Part shown: positions 2,427 to 45,526 of the stretch, in pieces | Position numbering within the stretch: the stretch's first letter is position 1 | Layout of the letters: each line of letters begins with the position of its first letter | Source of the DNA: a virus | Taxonomy: Duplodnaviria; Caudoviricetes | DNA length: 64,000 bases | Strand: one strand, 5' to 3' | Virus record (IMG/VR): IMGVR_UViG_3300031555_003522 | Span: 64,001 to 128,000 of that record | Program-made: the position numbers and the translations under genes | The notes under the pieces: model-generated | The model's input: only the letters and a program-made list of their open reading frames with translations | Told to the model about the DNA's origin: nothing | Database searches by the model: none

Positions 2427-3059
2427 TTATGTCGATCTAATAAGTTGATCGATTATTTGTTCCATATAAGTTCTAGCATCATTGATCTCTCGATCCATCT
2501 TATCGAAATATTCTTTACTGCATAATTCATCTGTATTTTTAGCCAGACTTGTATGGATTATTGCTTCAAATTTGACATATATTTTATCCCCACAATATCC
2601 AGGATGTTGTTTAACAATTAGTTTATCTTTATAAGCCTCTATTAATTCAAATAATTTCTTTCTTTTATCTTCCCATTCAATATCTAGAATTTCAAGAGAA
2701 GGAAATTTAAATATTGGCCTATCACCTTTCCAGTTACGGGTAATTAGATCAGGATCATATGCTATAATCTCTCCATAGTCATAAAAAATACTAATACCCA
2801 ATGCAGCACAAGCCTTATGAGCAATAACTGTATCTCCATGAATCTCAACAAAATCGGATAGACATTTATTACATCTGGCATTTACAACCATTTTAGTATC
2901 TAAAAGAATAAAATTAGTCAGATCTCCTTCTAATTTAGTAAATGTCATTTTAGGAGGAGTTACAGTAATTATTTTATGGCAATATTTGCAATATAGATAT
3001 CTGGTTTCTCCATCATGACTATCAGATAAGCATACTCTCATCATATTATTGATACTCAT
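2427..3059 (-). CDS. Zn-ribbon (CxxC..CxxC) family protein
   Basis: CKYC...CNKC; SD ggagg upstream. Confidence 0.7.
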   Translation of the reverse strand: MSINNMMRVCLSDSHDGETRYLYCKYCHKIITVTPPKMTFTKLEGDLTNFILLDTKMVVNARCNKCLSDFVEIHGDTVIAHKACAALGISIFYDYGEIIAYDPDLITRNWKGDRPIFKFPSLEILDIEWEDKRKKLFELIEAYKDKLIVKQHPGYCGDKIYVKFEAIIHTSLAKNTDELCSKEYFDKMDREINDARTYMEQIIDQLIRST

Positions 3060-3063
3060 TTTA

Positions 3064-4149
3064 TTATTCCTCCTTATCAAAATGATGAATAATCTCATCC
3101 ACAAATTTAAATAATGTATTTTTTAACCATGCTTGATCAGCTTCAGGAACTTTATCCTGAATATTAATGCTTTTAGGAATCTTAGGCCCTATTCTCAATG
3201 ATGGATTTTCATCCATAAACATTACTTCAAGATTACGCTTCTTCTGAGATGCTTTTGCAAGAATTACACTTACAACTTCAGGCTTTGTTTCTACTATATT
3301 AATCATAATATACGGATAGGAGTAATTCTCAACTTCTTTTAACGATGTAGTATTGTTATTAGTCCTAATTGTATCTATCATTTCTTTATGCCCAGAACAA
3401 CAATATTCGGTAGCAATACCAAGAAGATTAAGTTTAATTATCCTATCTACAAAATCTTCATCACACTCGAACATGCTCTGGTTGCAACTAGTACATATAG
3501 GCGCAAATGTAGTTCGTGTTCTTTCAATATCAAAGTTTTCAATATCAGAAGTAATACTAAATGTGGTTTCGCTCTTTACATTGAAAGATACTCTACCAAA
3601 GCAGGATGGACAAATAAATGTAGTCTTTACATGATCTATTTCAGAAATCTTATCATGATATAAGAAATTATTTCTATTCATATTTGCAGGAATACCGCCT
3701 TGCCAGTGCGATTGTATAGGATCTTCGTCATTTTTATCTAAAGGTAACATAACTGGTCCTATTGAATAACCTCTAGATTTTCTGTTTTTATAGTAATCTT
3801 CTATAGTAATACCATCCATTGTATTATAAATAGATAATACAACCATTTCTATGAATCCAAGATAATAATCACATTTAACAGTATCTACAGATACAACTGT
3901 TACATCTATACTATCGGGTGCATATGGATGCATGGTTACTTCCACCATCTTTTTTCCGGTAATATATGTGTAGTCCGATTTCCACACTTCTTCAATTACA
4001 TGCATTATTCCAACTTGGGTTCTAGCACTATTTGATAAATCAAGACTAAATCTATTGCTATCAGGATAAAATGAAACCCCAATACCAATAAAATTTAGTT
4101 GATCTTTTATAGACTCTAATCTATCTTTTAAAATTTCTGCTTTACTCAT
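3064..4149 (-). CDS. Zn-ribbon family protein with N-terminal extension
   Basis: CPSC...CTSC, plus CCSGH motif. Confidence 0.7.
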   Translation of the reverse strand: MSKAEILKDRLESIKDQLNFIGIGVSFYPDSNRFSLDLSNSARTQVGIMHVIEEVWKSDYTYITGKKMVEVTMHPYAPDSIDVTVVSVDTVKCDYYLGFIEMVVLSIYNTMDGITIEDYYKNRKSRGYSIGPVMLPLDKNDEDPIQSHWQGGIPANMNRNNFLYHDKISEIDHVKTTFICPSCFGRVSFNVKSETTFSITSDIENFDIERTRTTFAPICTSCNQSMFECDEDFVDRIIKLNLLGIATEYCCSGHKEMIDTIRTNNNTTSLKEVENYSYPYIMINIVETKPEVVSVILAKASQKKRNLEVMFMDENPSLRIGPKIPKSINIQDKVPEADQAWLKNTLFKFVDEIIHHFDKEE

Positions 4150-4173
4150 ATTAATCACCTTTAATATATTTTA

Positions 4174-4812
4174 TTAGATACCCCTCTCCTCTATATTTTC
4201 AATAAAATGCTTGAGGAATCTAAGTAGACGATCATCAGATATTTTACAATTATAATCGAGTTTTTCATCTCCGCCAATATCTTCCTTGTTAAGGAATCCA
4301 AATCTAGAGTTATAAGATAATGGATGATAGAATGCACTAGAAATTGTAATACCACCAAGATCATCATTATTTTCTTCTTGGATTCTCTCCAAATTAAATT
4401 CTTCACTTTCACTACAAGTAAGGACGAAATTTGTAGTATGATAGAAATGCCAATTGGGCTCAAAAGATATAGTAATATTTGCACCACTACAATAAGTATC
4501 AAATTGTGTAATACTTGAATTATTAGTAATATAATTTGGTGTATAAAATGCTTTATTTACTTCTAATACTTTAACACCTAGAGTTCTAAGTTTTTCACAA
4601 GTTTCTACAAACTTAACATCCATATCTATCATTCTAGTACCGCATAAACAATTTGATCTACACCCTATAGAAATATTAAGAGTACTATAATCTATAGCAA
4701 CTTCTGTAGTAACTGTAGAAGGTCTATTTACTTTAGTAAATATTTTGAGTTCTTCTTTAGCACCACATTTAGGGCACCACATAATAATTGTATGAGTTTT
4801 ATAATTTTGCAT
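4174..4812 (-). CDS. Zn-ribbon family protein
   Basis: CPKCG...CLCG. Confidence 0.7.
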   Translation of the reverse strand: MQNYKTHTIIMWCPKCGAKEELKIFTKVNRPSTVTTEVAIDYSTLNISIGCRSNCLCGTRMIDMDVKFVETCEKLRTLGVKVLEVNKAFYTPNYITNNSSITQFDTYCSGANITISFEPNWHFYHTTNFVLTCSESEEFNLERIQEENNDDLGGITISSAFYHPLSYNSRFGFLNKEDIGGDEKLDYNCKISDDRLLRFLKHFIENIEERGI

Positions 4813-4878
4813 ATATTTTACATATCCTTTTCTTTAATTACTGTATTGTAAAAATACTATTCAATTGCTAATTTGCTC

Positions 4879-5641
4879 TTAATCAAAGATGATAGGCTCT
4901 ATCATATTCTCAGGATCGTAGCCCATTGCTAATAAAGTAAGATATCGATCTATCTGATAGTCTGAGGCATAGTTAACATGTTTCATATGACCAGTTATAG
5001 GAGGGATATGCCTTAGCGTAATCTCTCCAGTTAAATTATCTCTATTTCTGAGTAAGTACACATTATCTTCGTTACAATCATATAGGGCAAAATAATCTAT
5101 TTCATCTACGTTATATACTGTTCTTTTTGGAATAGCTTTACCATGATCAAAAACATTTCCTTTGGATACTAACTGGAACAGTGTACCACCATTATCCACT
5201 CCAACACATCTAGAAGAAGATTTAACTTGTATTCTTTGCAGTTTTCCATCAAATTCAGCAACCAAATCTACCTTAGTATTATCAAGAATTGGCGTGTATA
5301 CCTGTATGCCATGTTCTGCAAATTTTCTTTATGGTAGCAACCTCACCTATTTTACCGACAAGTCCAGTATTATTTGTGCTTTTATCCACAGCCCTTGTAT
5401 CTGGTCTATACAATTCACATTGTATTGGATTTCTTTTTCTATCCTCACTAATCTTATTTCTATTTTCTAAAGACTTAGATCTGTTTTCTTCGGAATTTAA
5501 AGCCTGTATTTGATTCTGCCTTCCCTGAAATGTAACGTATTCATTTGAATACTTTCTAGCACATGTAGCTGAACAAAATCTTCCACTTCCATATGTGCCA
5601 TCATGCGGTTTTCTGCAATATTCACATATAATATCATTCAT
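4879..5641 (-). pseudogene. PD-(D/E)XK homing-type endonuclease with N-terminal Zn finger, split by a single-base frameshift near 5323
   Basis: CEYC...FCSATC finger; skipping one A in AAG AAA A TTT GCA joins the two ORFs into G.IGE...FAEHGIQVYTPILDNTKVDLVAEFDGKLQRIQVKS (PDDEXK_5-like). Confidence 0.75.
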
Positions 5642-5748
5642 ATAAATTACCTCTTTCTAATGTATTAAAAGTATATTTCAGCTATATAATATATTTATGA
5701 ATAAAAGATTAATATTATTTGTACATATTATTAGTCTTTAATAGATAC

Positions 5749-5825
5749 GGGCCCATCGCCTAGCTGGTTAAGGCCTTCTGCTCATAACAGAACCACCGCA
5801 AGTTCGAGTCTTGCTGGGCCCACCA
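5749..5825 (+). tRNA. tRNA with CAT anticodon, probably tRNA-Ile2 (lysidine, reads AUA)
   Basis: Acceptor GGGCCCA/TGGGCCC, anticodon arm TTCTG-CTCATAA-CAGAA, TTCGAGT T-loop, encoded CCA. C4:G69 and C5:G68 pairs are typical TilS determinants. Confidence 0.9.
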
Positions 5826-5852
5826 ACCCCTTTTGGGGTCCCATTTTCTTCC

Positions 5853-6035
5853 GTGGTAATACTTTTGTCCTAGACGCCCCGCGTCATCACCTGCCCAAGA
5901 TTTAATAATTTGAGCTTTTGATTGTTTATTGAGTTTTGTGATCACCTCCTATGTATCATTAAAAATTTCTTTAACAATATTTCATATATAAAAGACAAAT
6001 TCTAAATCAACTTCCATCTCTCAAAGTATTACCAC
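5853..6035 (+). ncRNA. Candidate structured RNA in tRNA trailer, with anti-SD loop
   Basis: 13-bp closing stem GTGGTAATACTTT (5853-65)/AAAGTATTACCAC (6023-35); internal hairpin with CACCTCCT in its loop; terminator follows. Confidence 0.5.
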
Positions 6036-6042
6036 AAAAACG

Positions 6043-6084
6043 AATAAGCACGGATGCTCTACCATCCGTGCTTATTTTTTTTTT
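6043..6084. terminator. Intrinsic terminator
   Basis: aataagcacggatg...catccgtgcttatt + T tract. Confidence 0.8.
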
Positions 6085-6692
6085 CATAATCCATATCTGG
6101 AAAGATGCTCCAATATATCAAATGCAAACTCAAGCATATGCTCTTTCAATATAGCATAAGATTCTACATCTTTTAATGTGTAGGATTTTTTATTTTCTAA
6201 AGCTTCTTTAATTTTTGGTCTAAATTCCACAGTACCAGCATGTGTGGTTATCATATCACCATATTTATCATGATATTCCATCTCAATAAGTGTACGAGAT
6301 AAAAACTTTCTTTTCTCGTATCCTATATCTATGTAGAAGGATATAGAAGGAAATACGATAATAGGCTTGCTCAAGTCCATAGATCCATCATCATTTAAAC
6401 TACCTATAGAACCTACATTCACTATCATAGGAAATCCATATGAATAAGATCTTGTAAATAGCTTAATTGCTTCATTATCTGTGATATATTTCATCTCTTG
6501 ATCACAGAGATTGCATGTTGCTCTTATCATACAGTCAGGAAAGTTGAAAGTAGTTGTATCAAGAATAGAATTTATAGCTGAGATTTTGGCAAAATTTGAT
6601 ATTCGTGCTTCATACTTAAGTTCTTTACCACAACATGGACATACTAAATGTGCATCCATGACCGCAGTACTTTCAATACTCTTGTTAGCCAT
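6084..6692 (-). CDS. Zn-ribbon family protein
   Basis: CPCCG...CNLC. Confidence 0.7.
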   Translation of the reverse strand: MANKSIESTAVMDAHLVCPCCGKELKYEARISNFAKISAINSILDTTTFNFPDCMIRATCNLCDQEMKYITDNEAIKLFTRSYSYGFPMIVNVGSIGSLNDDGSMDLSKPIIVFPSISFYIDIGYEKRKFLSRTLIEMEYHDKYGDMITTHAGTVEFRPKIKEALENKKSYTLKDVESYAILKEHMLEFAFDILEHLSRYGL

Positions 6693-6940
6693 CCTCCAGT
6701 ATCTCCTTTACGTTCCTTATTATATCTTTTAGAATAACGTCTAAGTATTAAATATACTATTTCTGTATTAATCTGCTTGGCGTGTACAGGATTGGGAGAA
6801 TACCAATTTTCTCCAAGTAGATAACGGCGTAGAAAATCAATGGCCGTTTCTGCATCCATTGGGGGTGCCATTATACCATAATCGTCTTGTTCATTAATCC
6901 ATTCATCGAATGTCTTATTCTTATTTTTCATATTATTCAA
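6644..6940 (-). CDS. Small hypothetical phage protein
   Basis: ORF track; co-oriented with and overlapping the next gene. Confidence 0.6.
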   Translation of the reverse strand: MNNMKNKNKTFDEWINEQDDYGIMAPPMDAETAIDFLRRYLLGENWYSPNPVHAKQINTEIVYLILRRYSKRYNKERKGDTGGWLTRVLKVLRSWMHI

Positions 6941-31004: not shown

Positions 31005-34000
31005 ATGGTGGCGAGATTCTTGAACTTAGAAAGAAGAGCAAAATATTCAGGTCAAGGATCTTCGGTTGTTAAATCAAATAAACGACTTGATATAAACCTT
31101 GATCTGCATACGTTAGAAATAATGTGTAAATGTCTGGTTACAGATAGCCAGAATATAAGACGTGGACAATTAATTAATTTAAGAAATTTAATTTATCTGA
31201 TAAATCCAGATAATTATATAAATGATGCCGAAAAGAATAAAAGAATCGATTTTATTAAGAAAGGTCTCGAGGGGCGACTCGAGTTCAATCTTACAGATCC
31301 CTTTATGATATTGTCTCATATAAATGGAGGCATACTGGATACAGATATAGTAAATCTAGAAGAATTTGCTGGACTTACTGGAGCTGAAATAAACTGGATG
31401 AATAATATGGTTTCGGAAGCTCTTAAGTTTTCTCATGTTTATTCTAGCGTAGATATGCTATTAGATATCTGTACCAGAATAAAGACATCTGATTATGGAA
31501 CAAAAGCTGCTATAGTTGCTGAATTTGAGCAAGCAATAAATGCTATTCAGAATAATTTTAGAAGATGTAGAAACCAGAATCAGACTCAAGAAATGTTCAG
31601 TTTACGTGATGGGTATTTTGAGAATGTGATGTATGACACATACTCAGCTCTTAGTAGTCCTAGACGTAAGCTTATGACTGGTATGCAAGGTATGAATGAA
31701 CTTCTCGGTGGTGGATATGAGAATGGACGTTGTTATGTCTATTTCGGTCTGCCTGGTGTAACCTAACGGTAATCACAGCTTGTATAGTAATATGCAAGTT
31801 CCCCGGGTTAACTGCTGGCAATCCCTAAAGCCTTAAGCACTACAACGTGATCTGAAAAGATGAGCGTGAATGTTACGAAAGTAGAAAAAAGCTTAAGGAT
31901 GGACTATGGTTAAATCCTAAGGTCTAACTCGACAAATGGGTCTTCAGCAGCCAATCACTTGTAAAATAGTGAAGGTTCAACGACTATCCCCTGGCAGGGG
32001 AGTAAAACCGCAAGCTAATGGCGGAAGAAAAATCCGGCTCCTTTATAAAGTCACCCATTTATAAAGGATGAATATATAGTCTATACACTATTGAAAAATA
32101 GTGGTACCCTATGGTGACAGAAGGTACTCTTATAAAGTTGCGTTTATAAGAAACTATCAATATCTAACGTAATTTAATCAATATATTCTCTCTAACCTTT
32201 CATTAATTCTATATGATGAAAGGAGGTGTAAAACAGATGGCTCAAAAATGTAAAGCCAATTCTGATAATTTGCGCGGTCATAAAGTTAGAATATATCCTA
32301 CTGAAGAGCAAAAGGATAAAATACTATCTTTTATAGATTCATATAGAGCTATTTATAATATAGCTATTGGGTCTCAGATAGATTATTATCGTTCTGGCGG
32401 AATATTTATTACATTTAATCAAATGTGTAAGAAATTTGCCGATATGAGAAATAATAATGAGAATTTCAAATGGCTAAATAATATGTCTATAGGAATTATA
32501 AGAGAAGCTTTAATAGATGCTGATGTAGCATTTACAAAATTCTTTGCTAAGATTAATAGATTTCCTAAATTTAAGTCTAAGAAAAGATCTAAAAAATCAT
32601 TTGGAACTAGATCCGATAGGTGTCATATCGATGGAAGAAATATTTATATATCAGGAGTAGGTTTGGTTGATGCTAAAGATCATCATATTCCAGAAGGGGT
32701 TAGAATGTATAAAACCAGAATAACTTACGACGGATATGATAAATTTTGGTTTTCATGTACAACCGAAAAAGATATGGAATTTCTTCCTATTGAAGGATTA
32801 GGTAAGCCTATAGGTGTTGATGTGGGTATAAGACACATGATAACAACATCGGATGGCGAAGTTTATGAACTATCAAATTTTTCGAAATTAAACAAAAGAC
32901 TTAAACAAAAAACGCGAAGAGCTATGCGCTCTATGAGGAAATATATAAATCAATCAAAACGTACGAAAATCAAGTATGAGGATATACCAAAATCTAAGAA
33001 TCACTATAAACGAATGAAAGAATGGGTTAAGATTAGTAATCGTATAGAGAATAAAAAATCTTATGATACTAATGTGGCTACTAGACGTATAATAGATAAA
33101 CATCCTTCTGCTATTGTAATAGAGGATTTGTGTTTATCTAAAATGCGAAAAAGAAATTGGATGAAGAAATTCGTACCACAAATAGTATTTAGAGATATAC
33201 ACAGACAATTGGAATATAAGGCTGCTGAATTAGGTATACCTGTAATAAAAGCAGATCGATTATACCCATCATCACAATTGTGTAGTAATTGCGGTTCAAT
33301 ACGTAAACTTAATTCTTCCGTTTATAAATGTAAAGTTTGTGGATTACGGATAGATCGTGATCTGAATGCTGCTATAAATCTTAGAAATTTGGCATATAAA
33401 AATGCATATGTTTAGTTTGCATATTACCACTTTCGGTGGATAGTGATATAATGTAAAAAGAATATATGTACCGTGCACTATACACGGGAGTTAAAGCCTT
33501 TGGAGAGCCTCGTACCACGAAATTTATCTAAATTTTGTGGCCGACATGTACTCGCGATATATGTTGGAGGGGTTCTGTGAATTAGGAAATCATACTTAAC
33601 ACGTACAATAATTACGTTAGAAGTTGATATATAGAAGGCAAGTCGAGCACAATGATGAATATCTTATATCAGTTAAAGAAGTATAATCGTGACTATAAAA
33701 CAAAAGACCCGACGAAGAGACCATGTATCGTATTATTGACAATGGAGAATACAGTTATAGAGTCTATTGATCGACTCTTTAATATGGCTACAGGTCATAA
33801 GAGGATGACGGATTACTCTCCTGAGGGAGCAATGAGAATGTTCAGAGAAGAGGGTGAGCTATATCTAACGGATGAATCTCCGATAGATATCATCATCAAA
33901 TTTGAACCTTCTAATTCTGTGGACACAAGTTATCTATATACTCTTACCGAAGATCTTGAAGATCAAGGTATGGAAGTAATAGCACTATTCCAGGATTATA

Positions 34001-41352: not shown

Positions 41353-44300
41353 ATGGCTAAGCCTACTAAGAATAATGAAGCCACAAATTTTGAAGAAAGC
41401 ATTCGTAGTTATGGTGATAAGATCGAACACATTGATACCTTTGTAGAAGCTGTGCGCCGATTCCCGGGTATGTATATCGGTGCAAAAAGTGATACTGGTT
41501 GGAAGGCATGTGGTCGAGAAATTTTCCAGAATGCTGTTGATGAGATTATCCGTGTAGAATCTCCTTGTCACTACGTAAAGATGAGTTTTGATGAAAGAAC
41601 TCAAGCTGTGGTAGTAGAAGATACTGGACGCGGTATTCCTCATGGTAAAATTATTGAAATCTATGCTAGTCAGCATACTAGTTCTAACTATTCCAAGAAA
41701 CCCGGTGAGTATACATCTGGTGTTCATGGTGTTGGCTCTGGTGTTGCTATGGCATTATCAAAATCTTTTGATATCTATTCGTACGTGCTTGGTGAAGCTA
41801 GGCATGTACATTTTGATTCTGGTGTATTATGGCCTGAAGGGGAAAAGGTTATTCCTTGTCCTGAGGGCAGACAGGGAACTACTGTTGTCATGACACCAGA
41901 CCTTGATGTATTAGACGAAGTAAATCTTACTTGCGAAGATTTCCTTGATCTAGTATTGAAGGTATATCCTCTTGTCAATGTCGGTGATAGAATAGATTTT
42001 ACCGGTATTGATAGAGATGGTAAAATCAAGTATCAGGAAGAATTAGTGAATAAGGATGGTATTATATCATCTCTTATGGTTAGAACTCAAGCTCCTCTTG
42101 TAACACCAGTACAGTTTAAAGATGATACTGGTTACATGAAAGCTGAGATCGCCTTCACTTATGACTCAAGTGATTTAACGTCTGTAGAAGATATTGTAAG
42201 TTATGCAAACTTTACACCTACAACTGGCGGCACGCACGTTGCTGGTTTTATGGATGGTGTGTGTAACTTCTTCCGAAACTACATGAACAAGATTTATCTT
42301 GGTGAGAAGTCTAAAGTTTCTGTGGTAAATAATGATGTCAAGACAGGTCTTAAAGTCATTATTGCAGCTGCTCATCTGAATCCTGTATTTGCGGGTCAGT
42401 TTAAGGGCATTCTGTCAAATGAAGATATGTATAAATATATCAAAGATCTGACTATGAAATCTTTGGAAGAATGGTCTAAGACGAGTCCTGGTGATTTGCA
42501 AAAGATTTGCAAGTTCATCAAGGAGATTGCTGAGATACGAATGAAGAGTGATGATAGTAAGATCAAGCTATCTAATAACTATGAAGCGAGTTCTCTTACT
42601 GGTAAGCCAAAGAAATATGTCCCACCCTCTGGACATAAAAATCTGGAGTTGATTATTGTAGAGGGTGATTCTGCATTAGGTTCTACTAAGAATAGTAGAG
42701 ATACTGCAACGCAAGGCGTATTCCCTGAAGTGGACGGGGCATTGACTAGTAATAGTCAATCGTAAACTTCCTTAATTGCTGGGATGCTAAGTATTATATG
42801 AAAGCCTTAGAAACTTTTATATAATATATGCTAATCAGCAGCCAAGTAGAAATCGGAAGTGATGCACTATGTATAATCCAATTATCTTTAATAATGAAGA
42901 GTTTAAAGATATAGTAATTCCAAATGTTAAACCGATATATTCTGTAAGCAATTATGGTACTATAATTAATAAAATAACCGGTGAGCAGATTAGCATGCAA
43001 ATTACAAGTGATGGATATTTAAGAGTGGGTTTATCGTGTTTAAATGGTAATACCAAACACTTTCTTGTCCATAGATTAGTATTAATGGCATTTTGTCCAA
43101 TACCTAATCCTGAATCGTTCGAGGGAAATCATCTTAAAGGAATAAAGATAGATAATAGGGTAGAGGAATTAGAGTGGACAACCACGTTAGAGAATAATCA
43201 TCATTCTTTTGATACGGGGTTGAATAATAATATACGAGAAAATCATGCAAAAGCTAAACTCACCAATGATCAAGTTCATTTAATATGTCAATGCTTAGAA
43301 AAAGGAATGACTATTAAAGAGATAGAACCTTTGATTATAGATACAGGATGTATAGATCTTGGAAGAAATATAAGAGCTATACGAGAAAGAAAAGCATGGG
43401 TTACTATAAGTAAGGATTATTCGTTTAGTAGCAGAAACAATAGAGATATGTTTTGTGATGATGAAGTTAGAATTATCTGTAAAATGATAGAAGCAGATGC
43501 CGGATATAAGAATATTTTAATATCATTAGGAATAGATATTTCTACTTTATCTTCAAAAGAGCTAGCAAATTATTGTGATATAATAAGTAATATTAGAGTG
43601 GGTAAATATTACTCAGATATATCTAAGGATTTTGATTTTTCAAAATCAAAGTTATTTAGACATGACCAAACTTTAGATAATGATAAAATAACTAAAGTGT
43701 GCAAATGTTTAGAATCTGGTATGAGTAGTACTGAGATACTAAATAAGCTTAATATATCAAAAGAATCCGTAGGTTATGAGAAATATGATAAAAGTCGACG
43801 GATTATAAATAAAATTAGAGCTAGAAAAGCATTCATTTCAATCTCTAAAGATTATGATTTCTAAAGGTTCAACGACTATCGAAAGGTATCTTATGATGAA
43901 CCGAGTAGAGTAGAACTCAAGCGAGTTTCGAAATGGGAAGGATCCATATAAATGGATCGTGATATAGTCTCATCTGTATGGAAACATACAGCAGTTCATA
44001 AGAGAACGGTATAGAAGTAGCGACTCTATATGAAGATATTGATCCGTGGTAAGTTGCCTAATGCATTTAAAACATCTAAAACATCTTTCTTAGCAAATCA
44101 AGAAATTGCTTCCATTATCACAATTATTGGTTGTGGATATGGTAAGAATTTTGATATAACTAAGTGTAAATTCGATAAGATAATTTTCTTAGCAGATGCG
44201 GATCCGGATAAGGTTGTGAGCTGTCCGGCTTAATAGAAATATTAAGAAAATAACTCTCTTAATTGCTGGAATATCTTAAAAATTGAGACAATCAGCAGCG

Positions 44301-45526
44301 AAGCCTCTTATATGAGGAACGTTCAACGACTAGTCGAAAGACGTAGGGTTCAAGCGAGCTCGAAATGGAGAGCCCTTAACAGGCAATGCTGAAGGTGAAG
44401 ATATAGTCTAACCTACATGGTGACATGTAGCAGTTCATAAGAGAACGGTATAAGTTTAGCGAACTTATATGAATATTAGGGTTCACACATTAATACACTT
44501 CTGCTTAGATTCTTTATCATGTATCTGCCAGAATTGATTACAGCTGGTAGGGTTTATCGTGCTGTTCCTCCTCTGTTTGGTATTAGAGGTAAGGGCAATA
44601 GTATGAAATACTTTACTACAAAGCTTGATTTCACTAAATATGTCCAGAATTTGTTTGCTCACAATCATGTGCTTACAGATATTAATGGGCGTAGACTTAC
44701 TAGCAATGAAACTACAAATTTATTCTTTAAGAATATAGATTATAAAGATCAAATTGAATCTATTGCAAATACTTTTGCGGTAGATCCTGATCTATTAGAA
44801 TCTGTATTATATCATCTCGCAAGATTTGTTGAGATTGGTAATCCTGAAGCTGTCGCCAGTATGGCTGCAAGGGCTAAAGCCGTAAAGGCTACTAGTAAGA
44901 AAGCAGAAAGTGCGACAAAAAAGAAAACAGAGGGTGCTAGTAAGGCAAAGAAGCAGACCTCTAAAAAAGAAGAAGATATTTCTGATGATGGAGATTTTAA
45001 TATAGAAGATATTCCTATCACAGAAACATCTGTATCTGCATCTGTAGCTTATTACATTAAACCTACGTTTAATGCAAAAGCTCTGAGAACAGAACTGAAG
45101 AAGTTATACAGATTCGTTGATATCGTTGAAGATAATGGTGTCATTAGAATTGAAGGACTTGTCAATAGTAGATATCAATATGTATTTATTAATGATAAAT
45201 TTATAGCTTCTTGTATTCCCCTTATCGAGACCATTAAGAATAATACTGACTTGTATTATCGTGTAAATGATGAAGCTGTTAGTTTGTATTCCTTAATGTG
45301 TCAATTCGATAATATGATCCCATCCGGCCTGATTAGATATAAGGGCTTGGGCGAACAGGATCCAGATCAATTGGCTGTATCTGCACTTCATCCCAAGGGT
45401 GATAGAACTCTTATTAGATATACTATTGAGAGCGCTAAAGAAGAAATCGAAAGTCTTAGACGAATCGATTCTAGTATGGCATCCTTGCTTAGAGAAGTTA
45501 AAATTACTAAAGCAGAGATTGAATAA
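41353..45526 (+). CDS. gyrB: DNA gyrase/topoisomerase II subunit B, spliced (exons 41353-42726, 44042-44209, 44480-45526; about 862 aa)
   Basis: RRFPGMYIG, EIFQNAVDE, GVHGVG, VEGDSA; splicing restores FP|IRGK and DADPD|GSHI; RYKGLGE. Confidence 0.95.
42727..44041 (+). mobile_element. Group I intron 1 in gyrB with HNH homing endonuclease
   Basis: 5' exon ends in U paired to GGGG guide; AATTGCTGG, ATCAGCAGCC, GGTTCAACGACTA, GATATAGTC; ends in G. Confidence 0.92.
42869..43864 (+). CDS. NUMOD4-HNH homing endonuclease with three C-terminal repeats
   Basis: EEFKDI..YSVSNYG, VHRLV, NH..G.K.DNRVEELEWTT..EN..H; 3 x IC..LE.G...ISKD(Y/F).F. Confidence 0.9.
   Translation: MYNPIIFNNEEFKDIVIPNVKPIYSVSNYGTIINKITGEQISMQITSDGYLRVGLSCLNGNTKHFLVHRLVLMAFCPIPNPESFEGNHLKGIKIDNRVEELEWTTTLENNHHSFDTGLNNNIRENHAKAKLTNDQVHLICQCLEKGMTIKEIEPLIIDTGCIDLGRNIRAIRERKAWVTISKDYSFSSRNNRDMFCDDEVRIICKMIEADAGYKNILISLGIDISTLSSKELANYCDIISNIRVGKYYSDISKDFDFSKSKLFRHDQTLDNDKITKVCKCLESGMSSTEILNKLNISKESVGYEKYDKSRRIINKIRARKAFISISKDYDF
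44210..44479 (+). mobile_element. Group I intron 2 in gyrB (270 nt, ORF-less)
   Basis: P1 CCGGAU/GUCCGG; AATTGCTGG, ATCAGCAGC, GTTCAACGACTA, GATATAGTCT; ends in G before GGT TCA CAC. Confidence 0.92.

Follow-up and report, generated by a model that had tools for sequence, protein, structure and literature searches.

Several described systems come close to the locus analysed here. The C-rich loops of the Bacillota small RNAs RsaE/RoxS and RNAIII occlude ribosome-binding sites by pairing with them, and in E. coli the ~ 50 nt tRNA-trailer RNA 3'ETS-leuZ, from the glyW-cysT-leuZ operon, sponges sRNAs with Hfq. Furthermore, sRNAs lying in the transcription context of tRNA genes have been reported for the Pseudomonas giant phages 201phi2-1 and PAK_P3 (PMC11512511), and the 3' tail of 16S rRNA, quoted in a review as GAUCA followed by CCUCC and U, is the binding site of Era (PMC10582724, citing Tu et al. 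2011). The KH domain of Era reads the GAUCA, chiefly its two adenines, and also binds CCUCC and contacts helix 45 at its base (PMC10582724). Transfer RNA-trailer RNAs, C-rich sRNAs that occlude Shine-Dalgarno (SD) sequences and sRNAs beside the tRNA genes of giant phages are already known. In the literature, we found no description of a conserved, tRNA-fused phage RNA of 200-390 nt displaying copies of the 16S tail.

The stretch of DNA under study, referred to below as the window, comprises 64,000 nucleotides corresponding to bases 64,001-128,000 of a 207,861-base IMG/VR virus record, which has a G+C content of ~ 31% with G making up 18% of the genome. An early-promoter motif of the AR9 type, a 9-mer followed by 6 N and a G, is found at 33 sites across the record and its consensus agrees in form with that of AR9 (PMC5312081), which, as far as sequence motifs go, fits the label of an AR9-like jumbo phage. 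At most of these 33 sites the 9-mer is followed by N5-T-G-A. The locus itself is a 442-base gap between the minus-strand genes at 5282-5641 and 6084-6692. It holds a unit that recurs, in synteny, in five contigs of ENA and Logan assemblies (L005, L007, L008, L009 and L010), and the window phage together with these five relatives will be called the six members. The parts of the unit, in window coordinates, are the following:

5721..5738, plus strand: promoter-like element upstream of the tRNA, in a block kept in 6/6 members
5749..5825, plus strand: tRNA with anticodon CAU and encoded CCA (ARAGORN; Rfam tRNA, 57 bits)
5826..5839, plus strand: hairpin H0, beginning with the base that immediately follows CCA, with an SD-like 3' strand
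5840..5852, plus strand: G-free C/U-rich linker, predicted unpaired with a P(unpaired) of 0.98
5853..5865, plus strand: 5' strand of the closing stem P1, pairing with 6023-6035
5866..5898, plus strand: 5' junction J5, with a small CCC-loop hairpin (5873-5885) and then a 16S-tail-like stretch (5886-5896)
5899-5904 (P2a), 5907-5912 (P2b) and 5915-5919 (P2c), plus strand: 5' strands of helix P2, pairing with 5990-6008
5920..5989, plus strand: variable apical domain of 70 nt, holding the perfect 16S-tail 11-mer (5940-5950) in a hairpin
5990-5994 (P2c), 5996-6001 (P2b) and 6003-6008 (P2a), plus strand: 3' strands of helix P2
about 6004..6022, plus strand: 3' junction J3, orthologue of the 16S-tail-like motif of the relatives
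6023..6035, plus strand: 3' strand of the closing stem P1
6042..6077, plus strand: intrinsic terminator, common to the convergent 202-aa gene
5760..5945, minus strand: 61-codon open frame behind AGGAGG, not a gene, running antisense through the tRNA

A preliminary description of this DNA had claimed that a copy of the conserved 3' end of 16S rRNA lies at 5940-5950, and the 11-mer at that place is indeed GAUCA, CCUCC and U of the tail. It occurs a single time in the 207,861-base record, both strands included, and its 8-base core 6 times. The elements described around it were likewise recovered: the 13-bp perfect inverted repeat formed by 5853-5865 and 6023-6035, which is unique in the genome, the TTCCAT at 6012-6017 and, further downstream, the terminator (6042-6077), whose 15-bp stem is followed by a run of 10 T and which is scored as a terminator on the minus strand as well. 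As claimed, the C-rich core sits in a hairpin loop, given that CCUCCUA (5945-5951) is the loop in the minimum-free-energy fold, in which CCUCCU has a mean predicted P(unpaired) of 0.93 and the GAUCA falls within a weak A/U-rich stem of the same hairpin. The 259-nt region as a whole folds far more stably than its shuffles, with a z of -8.85. On the minus strand, the AGGAGG was said to have no properly spaced start, and no ATG, GTG or TTG is found 4-12 nt downstream of it, the only one being an overlapping GTG. A Rfam 15 scan (E <= 10) of the window region and of its relatives returned tRNA and chance-level matches only, and the RNA has no Rfam family. A repeat or mobile element was ruled out, the locus being without a second copy in the genome, and a supposed paralogue at record position 45.26 kb was dropped as it lies inside a gene.

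The relatives were reached from homologues of two proteins, the neighbouring one of 593 aa and a virion protein, followed by exact-protein look-ups, and the flanking 202-aa protein of these relatives shows 72-76% identity to that of the window. Searches of IMG/VR with single proteins, protein alignments and exact DNA patterns gave no further relatives, GenBank phages searched by DNA and by protein gave none, and a scan of one JGI metagenome gave a single 1-kb contig ending short of the locus. Two metagenome contigs that encode the same 119-aa protein show no difference from the window and thus bring no variation, and contigs L011, L014, L015 and L016 do not extend as far as the locus.

All six members display the same order of parts, namely tRNA-CCA, H0, linker, P1, J5, P2, variable top, J3, P1 3' strand and terminator, and in each of them the RNA lies directly 3' of the tRNA, on the same strand and before the terminator of the unit, in the manner of a tRNA trailer. 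Indeed, a tRNA(CAU) occupies the same place and the same strand in all 5 relatives and H0 starts directly after the CCA in 6/6. The linker measures 12-15 nt, being pyrimidine-rich with 0-1 G in 5/6 members, and P1 measures 11-13 bp, while P2 consists of three short segments built from two conserved sequence blocks, its 5' strands (5899..5919) being a conserved block in 6/6. The apical domain, which is of 70 nt in the window, reaches 102-208 nt in the relatives and the top of the window is unalignable with theirs. In every member the terminator hairpin is followed by 8-12 T on the plus strand and abuts the stop of the convergent gene.

Upstream of the unit, a conserved A/T-rich block holds an early promoter facing away and a second element facing the tRNA. 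The early promoter (5679-5702, minus strand; 9-mer, 6 N, G) is directed towards the 119-aa gene at 5282-5641 and is kept in all relatives. The second element, at 5721..5738, has 8/9 bases of the early-promoter 9-mer of the phage, followed by 6 N, its predicted +1 being a T and not a G; the consensus behind this comparison was drawn from the 33 genome sites and AR9 (PMC5312081). From its sequence we infer that this element may act as a promoter. Inside the unit no early or late promoter motif is conserved, which fits co-transcription with the tRNA. In the case of H0, two-sided changes are seen at 2/5 positions, and its terminator-like score and the T-rich run that follows it are found in the window only. 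Since this run is restricted to the window, H0 is not a conserved terminator, but in the window phage read-through into the body of the RNA may be partial.

The tRNA(CAU) at 5749..5825 is presumably a tRNA-Ile2 of the lysidine type and not an elongator tRNA-Met, following the C4-G69/C5-G68 rule. The record has only two tRNAs, Leu(UAA) and this one, with ATA representing 31% of the Ile codons, which fits a tRNA of the Ile2 type. When the window tRNA was compared with those of L007 (2664-2741), L008 (2682-2757) and L009 (2675-2750), it was seen to evolve fast among close relatives, the GGGCCC acceptor start and the anticodon loop being kept. The T-loop of the L007 tRNA shows an A...U swap at the usual T54/A58 places, and in L008 and L009 the T-loop starts with a G and the D-loop is shorter. 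Such fast change may reflect diversification under a tRNA-directed defence.

In order to count compensatory changes, an anchored script of our own was applied to the six members, given that MAFFT misaligned parts of P1. Two-sided changes were found at 10/11 positions of P1, with one non-standard cell, at 7/11 positions of the terminator stem and at 2 positions each in H0, P2b and P2c, counts which are not independent of each other as the six known members are mutually related. Only 3 non-standard cells were met across H0, P1, P2 and the terminator, and an extra helix, P3, in the tops of L007-L009 shows two-sided changes at 7/13 positions. A counting tool run on the plain MAFFT alignment covered 21 well-aligned pairs of P1 and P2, in which 92.3% of the cells were paired compared to 36-52% with the partners slid, and 7 pairs had a two-sided change compared to 1-2 when slid; none of 500 shuffles reached the observed values. 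In the same count the outer 8 pairs of P1 were 100% paired. Furthermore, G-U wobble cells on the plus strand number at least 7 against one A-C, and because these wobbles and the T run both fall on the plus strand, it is the plus-strand RNA that is being selected. Neither strand has an ORF that is conserved among the six members, and the best-conserved block has a one-base indel in L010. A small plus-strand peptide from conserved block 1 was rejected as well, with only 3 codons in the window and a frame shift in L010. The preliminary description had put forward a covariance search in related phages as a check; in the comparison made here, the architecture and the covarying helices recur in 5 diverged relatives. 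Since the 16S-tail-like motif recurs in these relatives along with the architecture, the 16S-like feature exceeds chance.

The place of this motif in the fold is not the one suggested by the window alone. In L005, L007, L008 and L009, a stretch with 9-10/10 bases of GAUCA and CCUCC begins 3-5 nt after P2 and extends into the G-poor junction before P1, and this distance from P2 is that of the motif in every member. In the window, the orthologous site (about 6004-6022) is degenerate, AUCA being retained and followed by a CUUCC-type C/U-rich tail that includes TTCCAT; hence the copy at 5940-5950, called site A, is an additional one located in the unalignable top. Scored for GAUCA then CCUCC, site A matches 10/10 at 5940-5949, and its closest likeness among the relatives is the L007 junction motif. 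In J5 there are further copies, less close to the 16S tail, at 5886-5896 of the window, with the same stretch in L008 and a close variant in L007. On the plus strand of 5/6 members, 16S-tail 6-mers are observed 3-8 times against ~ 0.5 in dinucleotide shuffles, with 0-1 on the minus strand, and in L010 they are absent.

Within the motif, conservation is uneven. The CCUCC core drifts, with a U insertion in L005, CCUCAA in L007, UCUCC in L008, CCCCC in L009 and its absence from L010, while AUCA is invariant in 6/6, as one of the few invariant column blocks, and is preceded by G in four. The AUC of the junction copies can pair with a conserved 5'-side partner in P2a, and at site A the GAUCA forms part of a stem; nothing resembling helix 45 was seen. 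Given that P2a is short and displays no two-sided change, this pairing does not settle the reason for the conservation of AUC.

The linker and J3 are poor in G, holding 7 G in 152 nt over five members compared to 18% G genome-wide, and the RNA bodies have a C/G ratio of 1.1-1.9. The predicted P(unpaired) of the linker is 0.9-1.0 in 5/6 members, and that of J3 is 0.6-0.97 in 4/6, 0.56 in L010 and 0.18 in L007, where the junction motif is thus predicted to be paired; in the window, the J3 segment 6009-6022 has a predicted value of 0.97. For J5 the mean is 0.61 over the whole junction and about 0.8-0.9 over 5886-5896. Several C-rich motifs able to pair with SD sequences, comparable to those of RsaE/RoxS, are thus present: linker, J5, J3 and the loop of site A all consist of C/U-rich, G-poor sequence, with a P(unpaired) of 0.6-1.0 in most members, and the tops of L007-L010 contain more C-rich hairpin loops and an unpaired C/U-rich stretch. 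In L009, a C-rich 10-mer is present twice, at 2881-2890 in a top-domain hairpin loop and at 2973-2982 in the 3' junction, a repetition of sequence which suggests two sites for one partner.

The prediction of targets had also been put forward in the preliminary description. Exact-complement and duplex scans of the whole record gave no standout mRNA partner, which counts against pairing with ribosome-binding sites: the best non-self duplexes are of about -24 kcal/mol with many near-ties, several of them ordinary ribosome-binding sites, and the longest exact complements are of 9-11 nt, a length within the reach of chance. Outside the window, at record positions 139,780-140,130 (L017), there is a candidate late RNA with a late-promoter motif and a terminator, in which several segments look like the 16S tail. 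This RNA and the present locus share, on the same strand, the 11-mer at window 5946-5956 (BLAST E 0.048 for that pair, borderline), and this shared sequence would fit either a common theme or a cassette exchange between the two RNAs. The L017 RNA has its own late promoter and no tRNA, whereas the present locus is tRNA-linked and has no late-promoter motif; there is no overall sequence similarity between them and the theme they have in common is that of exposed 16S-tail-like strands.

The unit lies within a series of small minus-strand genes (2427-6940) that includes a PD-(D/E)XK nuclease and a Tad8-type Thoeris inhibitor. This series, located between a Myb-repeat helicase gene and the 593-aa gene, comprises Zn-ribbon paralogues, the PD-(D/E)XK nuclease, the tRNA-RNA unit and Tad8. 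In the distant relative L012 (3218-3804) it is absent and the helicase adjoins a 595-aa gene; because the entire gene run is missing there, 2427-6940 is an accessory island, and it probably serves anti-defence. The Tad8-type protein has 98 aa (6644-6940, minus strand; Pfam Tad8, type II Thoeris inhibitor, E 9.6e-24) and its gene overlaps the start of the 202-aa Zn-ribbon gene. At 4879-5641 of the window, a 119-aa zinc-finger-like and a 128-aa PD-(D/E)XK protein are encoded by two separate genes, in place of which L007 (1815-2573) has one 252-aa PD-(D/E)XK gene, and this may be a gene split or a fusion; a 171-aa homologue with a PD-(D/E)XK domain was found elsewhere (P0002). Further along the window, the 400-aa ORF at 32213-33415, with OrfB_IS605, HTH and Cas12f1-like TNB domains, is a TnpB-type transposon-associated nuclease within the phage genome. 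At 41353-45526, a GyrB-like ORF, an HNH endonuclease ORF (42869-43864) and a topoisomerase II large-subunit fragment follow each other in that order, which may represent a topoisomerase gene split by a homing endonuclease or an intron; the G+C content is raised at 38-42 kb of the window, in this topoisomerase/HNH region.

On the best reading of these observations, the unit belongs to a previously undescribed family of structured non-coding RNAs of gut AR9-like jumbo phages. Transcription would probably start at the conserved promoter-like element before the tRNA, pass through the tRNA and stop at the terminator, which is a strong one on the plus strand. Cleavage at the boundary between CCA and H0, or close to it, would then release the tRNA, and the remaining RNA would measure ~ 250 nt (200-390 nt in the relatives), with H0 protecting its 5' end and the terminator hairpin its 3' end. 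The scaffold formed by P1, P2 and the variable top would keep G-poor C/U-rich strands open, that is, the linker, the two junction strands beside P2 and, in the window phage, an extra hairpin loop, and two or three of these strands copy the 3' tail of 16S rRNA. Most likely, such anti-SD-like strands would pair with purine-rich ribosome-binding sites and keep 30S subunits off. We infer this function with reserve, giving a new tRNA-linked phage sRNA family that pairs with ribosome-binding sites somewhat less than an even chance. It counts against the proposal that the upstream promoter is no more than motif-like, with 8/9 bases and the wrong +1 base.

The phage sRNA of the preliminary description, freed from a tRNA transcript and blocking strong ribosome-binding sites, thus stands in part. 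What holds is a conserved, structured, non-coding plus-strand RNA which is always joined to a tRNA and has a plus-strand terminator at its end, with exposed anti-SD-like C/U-rich strands as in the C-rich sRNAs of Bacillota. What must be amended concerns the perfect 16S copy in the loop: this copy is phage-specific and lies in the non-conserved top. The conserved copy of the relatives is a single-stranded junction just 3' of P2, degenerate in the window, and it is AUCA alone that is invariant while the CCUCC core drifts and L010 is without 16S-tail words.

The main weakness of pairing with ribosome-binding sites is indeed that, within the motif, conservation is lowest in the SD-pairing core. 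An invariant AUCA (6/6), with the preceding G in four and a drifting CCUCC, is a pattern that is fitted better by a decoy of the 16S 3' minor domain, in which P2 would take the part of helix 45, the junction that of the 16S 3' tail and P1 that of the pre-16S processing stem. This decoy would capture a 16S-tail-reading factor (the essential assembly GTPase Era, RbfA, YbeY or a tail-directed host nuclease) and would titrate or recruit it. The fixed distance of 3-5 nt between the motif and the preceding helix, as well as the location in an accessory island beside a Tad8-type anti-defence gene, are consistent with such a role. Nevertheless we hold the decoy to be quite improbable: P2 is unlike helix 45 and Rfam gives no small-subunit rRNA match, the possible pairing of AUC in P2a would explain its conservation and at the same time hide the motif from a single-strand reader, and many other C/U-rich strands are left unaccounted for. 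Moreover, neither a bS21 nor a KH_2 protein is encoded by the phage, and a phage bS21 or KH protein as partner was dropped for this reason. To our knowledge, an RNA decoy of a 16S-tail-reading factor has no precedent; if true, this would be the first case of a ribosome-biogenesis or ribosome-targeting factor being captured by an RNA decoy.

It could also be that the likeness to 16S rRNA is incidental and that the RNA works in another mode, either as a cis element for the processing or stability of the tRNA precursor and as an insulator of the two convergent transcription units, or as an anti-defence RNA, in the form of an antitoxin or a nuclease decoy. Much of the setting agrees with this: the RNA is always joined to the tRNA, with H0 exactly after the CCA in 6/6, it lies between convergent units with a shared terminator, its top of 70-208 nt is fast-evolving, the island absent from L012 carries Tad8, and the tRNA itself is fast-changing, with odd T-loops in L007-L009. 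A cis spacer or signal, however, needs neither 200-390 nt with helices bearing compensatory changes nor repeated G-poor C/U-rich strands with 16S-tail words, which are enriched in 5/6, and we therefore consider this mode rather unlikely, while giving it real weight. As for the motif being the SD of a decayed or unusual minus-strand gene, the region then being a dead gene start, the perfect extended minus-strand SD does head a 61-codon frame, of a length uncommon at 31% G+C. But this frame has no spaced start codon, runs antisense through the tRNA and has no family match, the frames matching it in the relatives being of 9-37 codons and unrelated; within the unit, promoter motifs of the early or late type are absent in that orientation, and the wobble pairs identify the plus strand as structurally selected. 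A dead minus-strand gene start is thus nearly excluded, with a probability that we put very close to nil.

If the pairing of the RNA with ribosome-binding sites is true, jumbo phages of gut Bacillota have a regulatory RNA that rides on a tRNA and shows the sequence with which the ribosome docks mRNA. This would be a simple means to compete with ribosomes for messages, or else to soak up the readers of the 16S tail, and the locus adds to the signs that this phage lineage controls translation with RNA besides proteins. The fold is compact and has comparative support, so it can be tested in vitro without phage culture.

Compared with the systems described above, the locus combines features that are otherwise found apart. 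The sRNAs of 201phi2-1 and PAK_P3, phages which, like their hosts, are unrelated to the present phage, are upstream of the tRNA (5'UTR-derived), short and without a described anti-SD motif. Similarly to 3'ETS-leuZ, the RNA lies directly 3' of a tRNA, would be freed by processing and has the terminator of the operon as its border; unlike this proteobacterial RNA, it is large and folded, belongs to a phage of a likely Bacillota host and carries anti-SD-like strands. With respect to the Era-binding tail of 16S rRNA, site A has the identical GAUCA + CCUCC decamer plus U, and the relatives have 9/10 bases or an insertion, with the motif after a helix; in contrast to the tail, site A has no helix 45 likeness and no rRNA context and its GAUCA is partly paired in the predicted fold, and in the motif of the relatives the CCUCC part is variable. 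With the hairpins of RsaE/RoxS and RNAIII, the locus shares several unpaired, C/U-rich, G-poor motifs complementary to SD sequences, a scaffold and an intrinsic terminator, with no sequence or Rfam relationship between them. Unlike RsaE/RoxS, the RNA is phage-encoded, fused to a tRNA gene and larger (200-390 nt), and the likeness of its motif to the 16S tail extends past the CCUCC core and takes in GAUCA.
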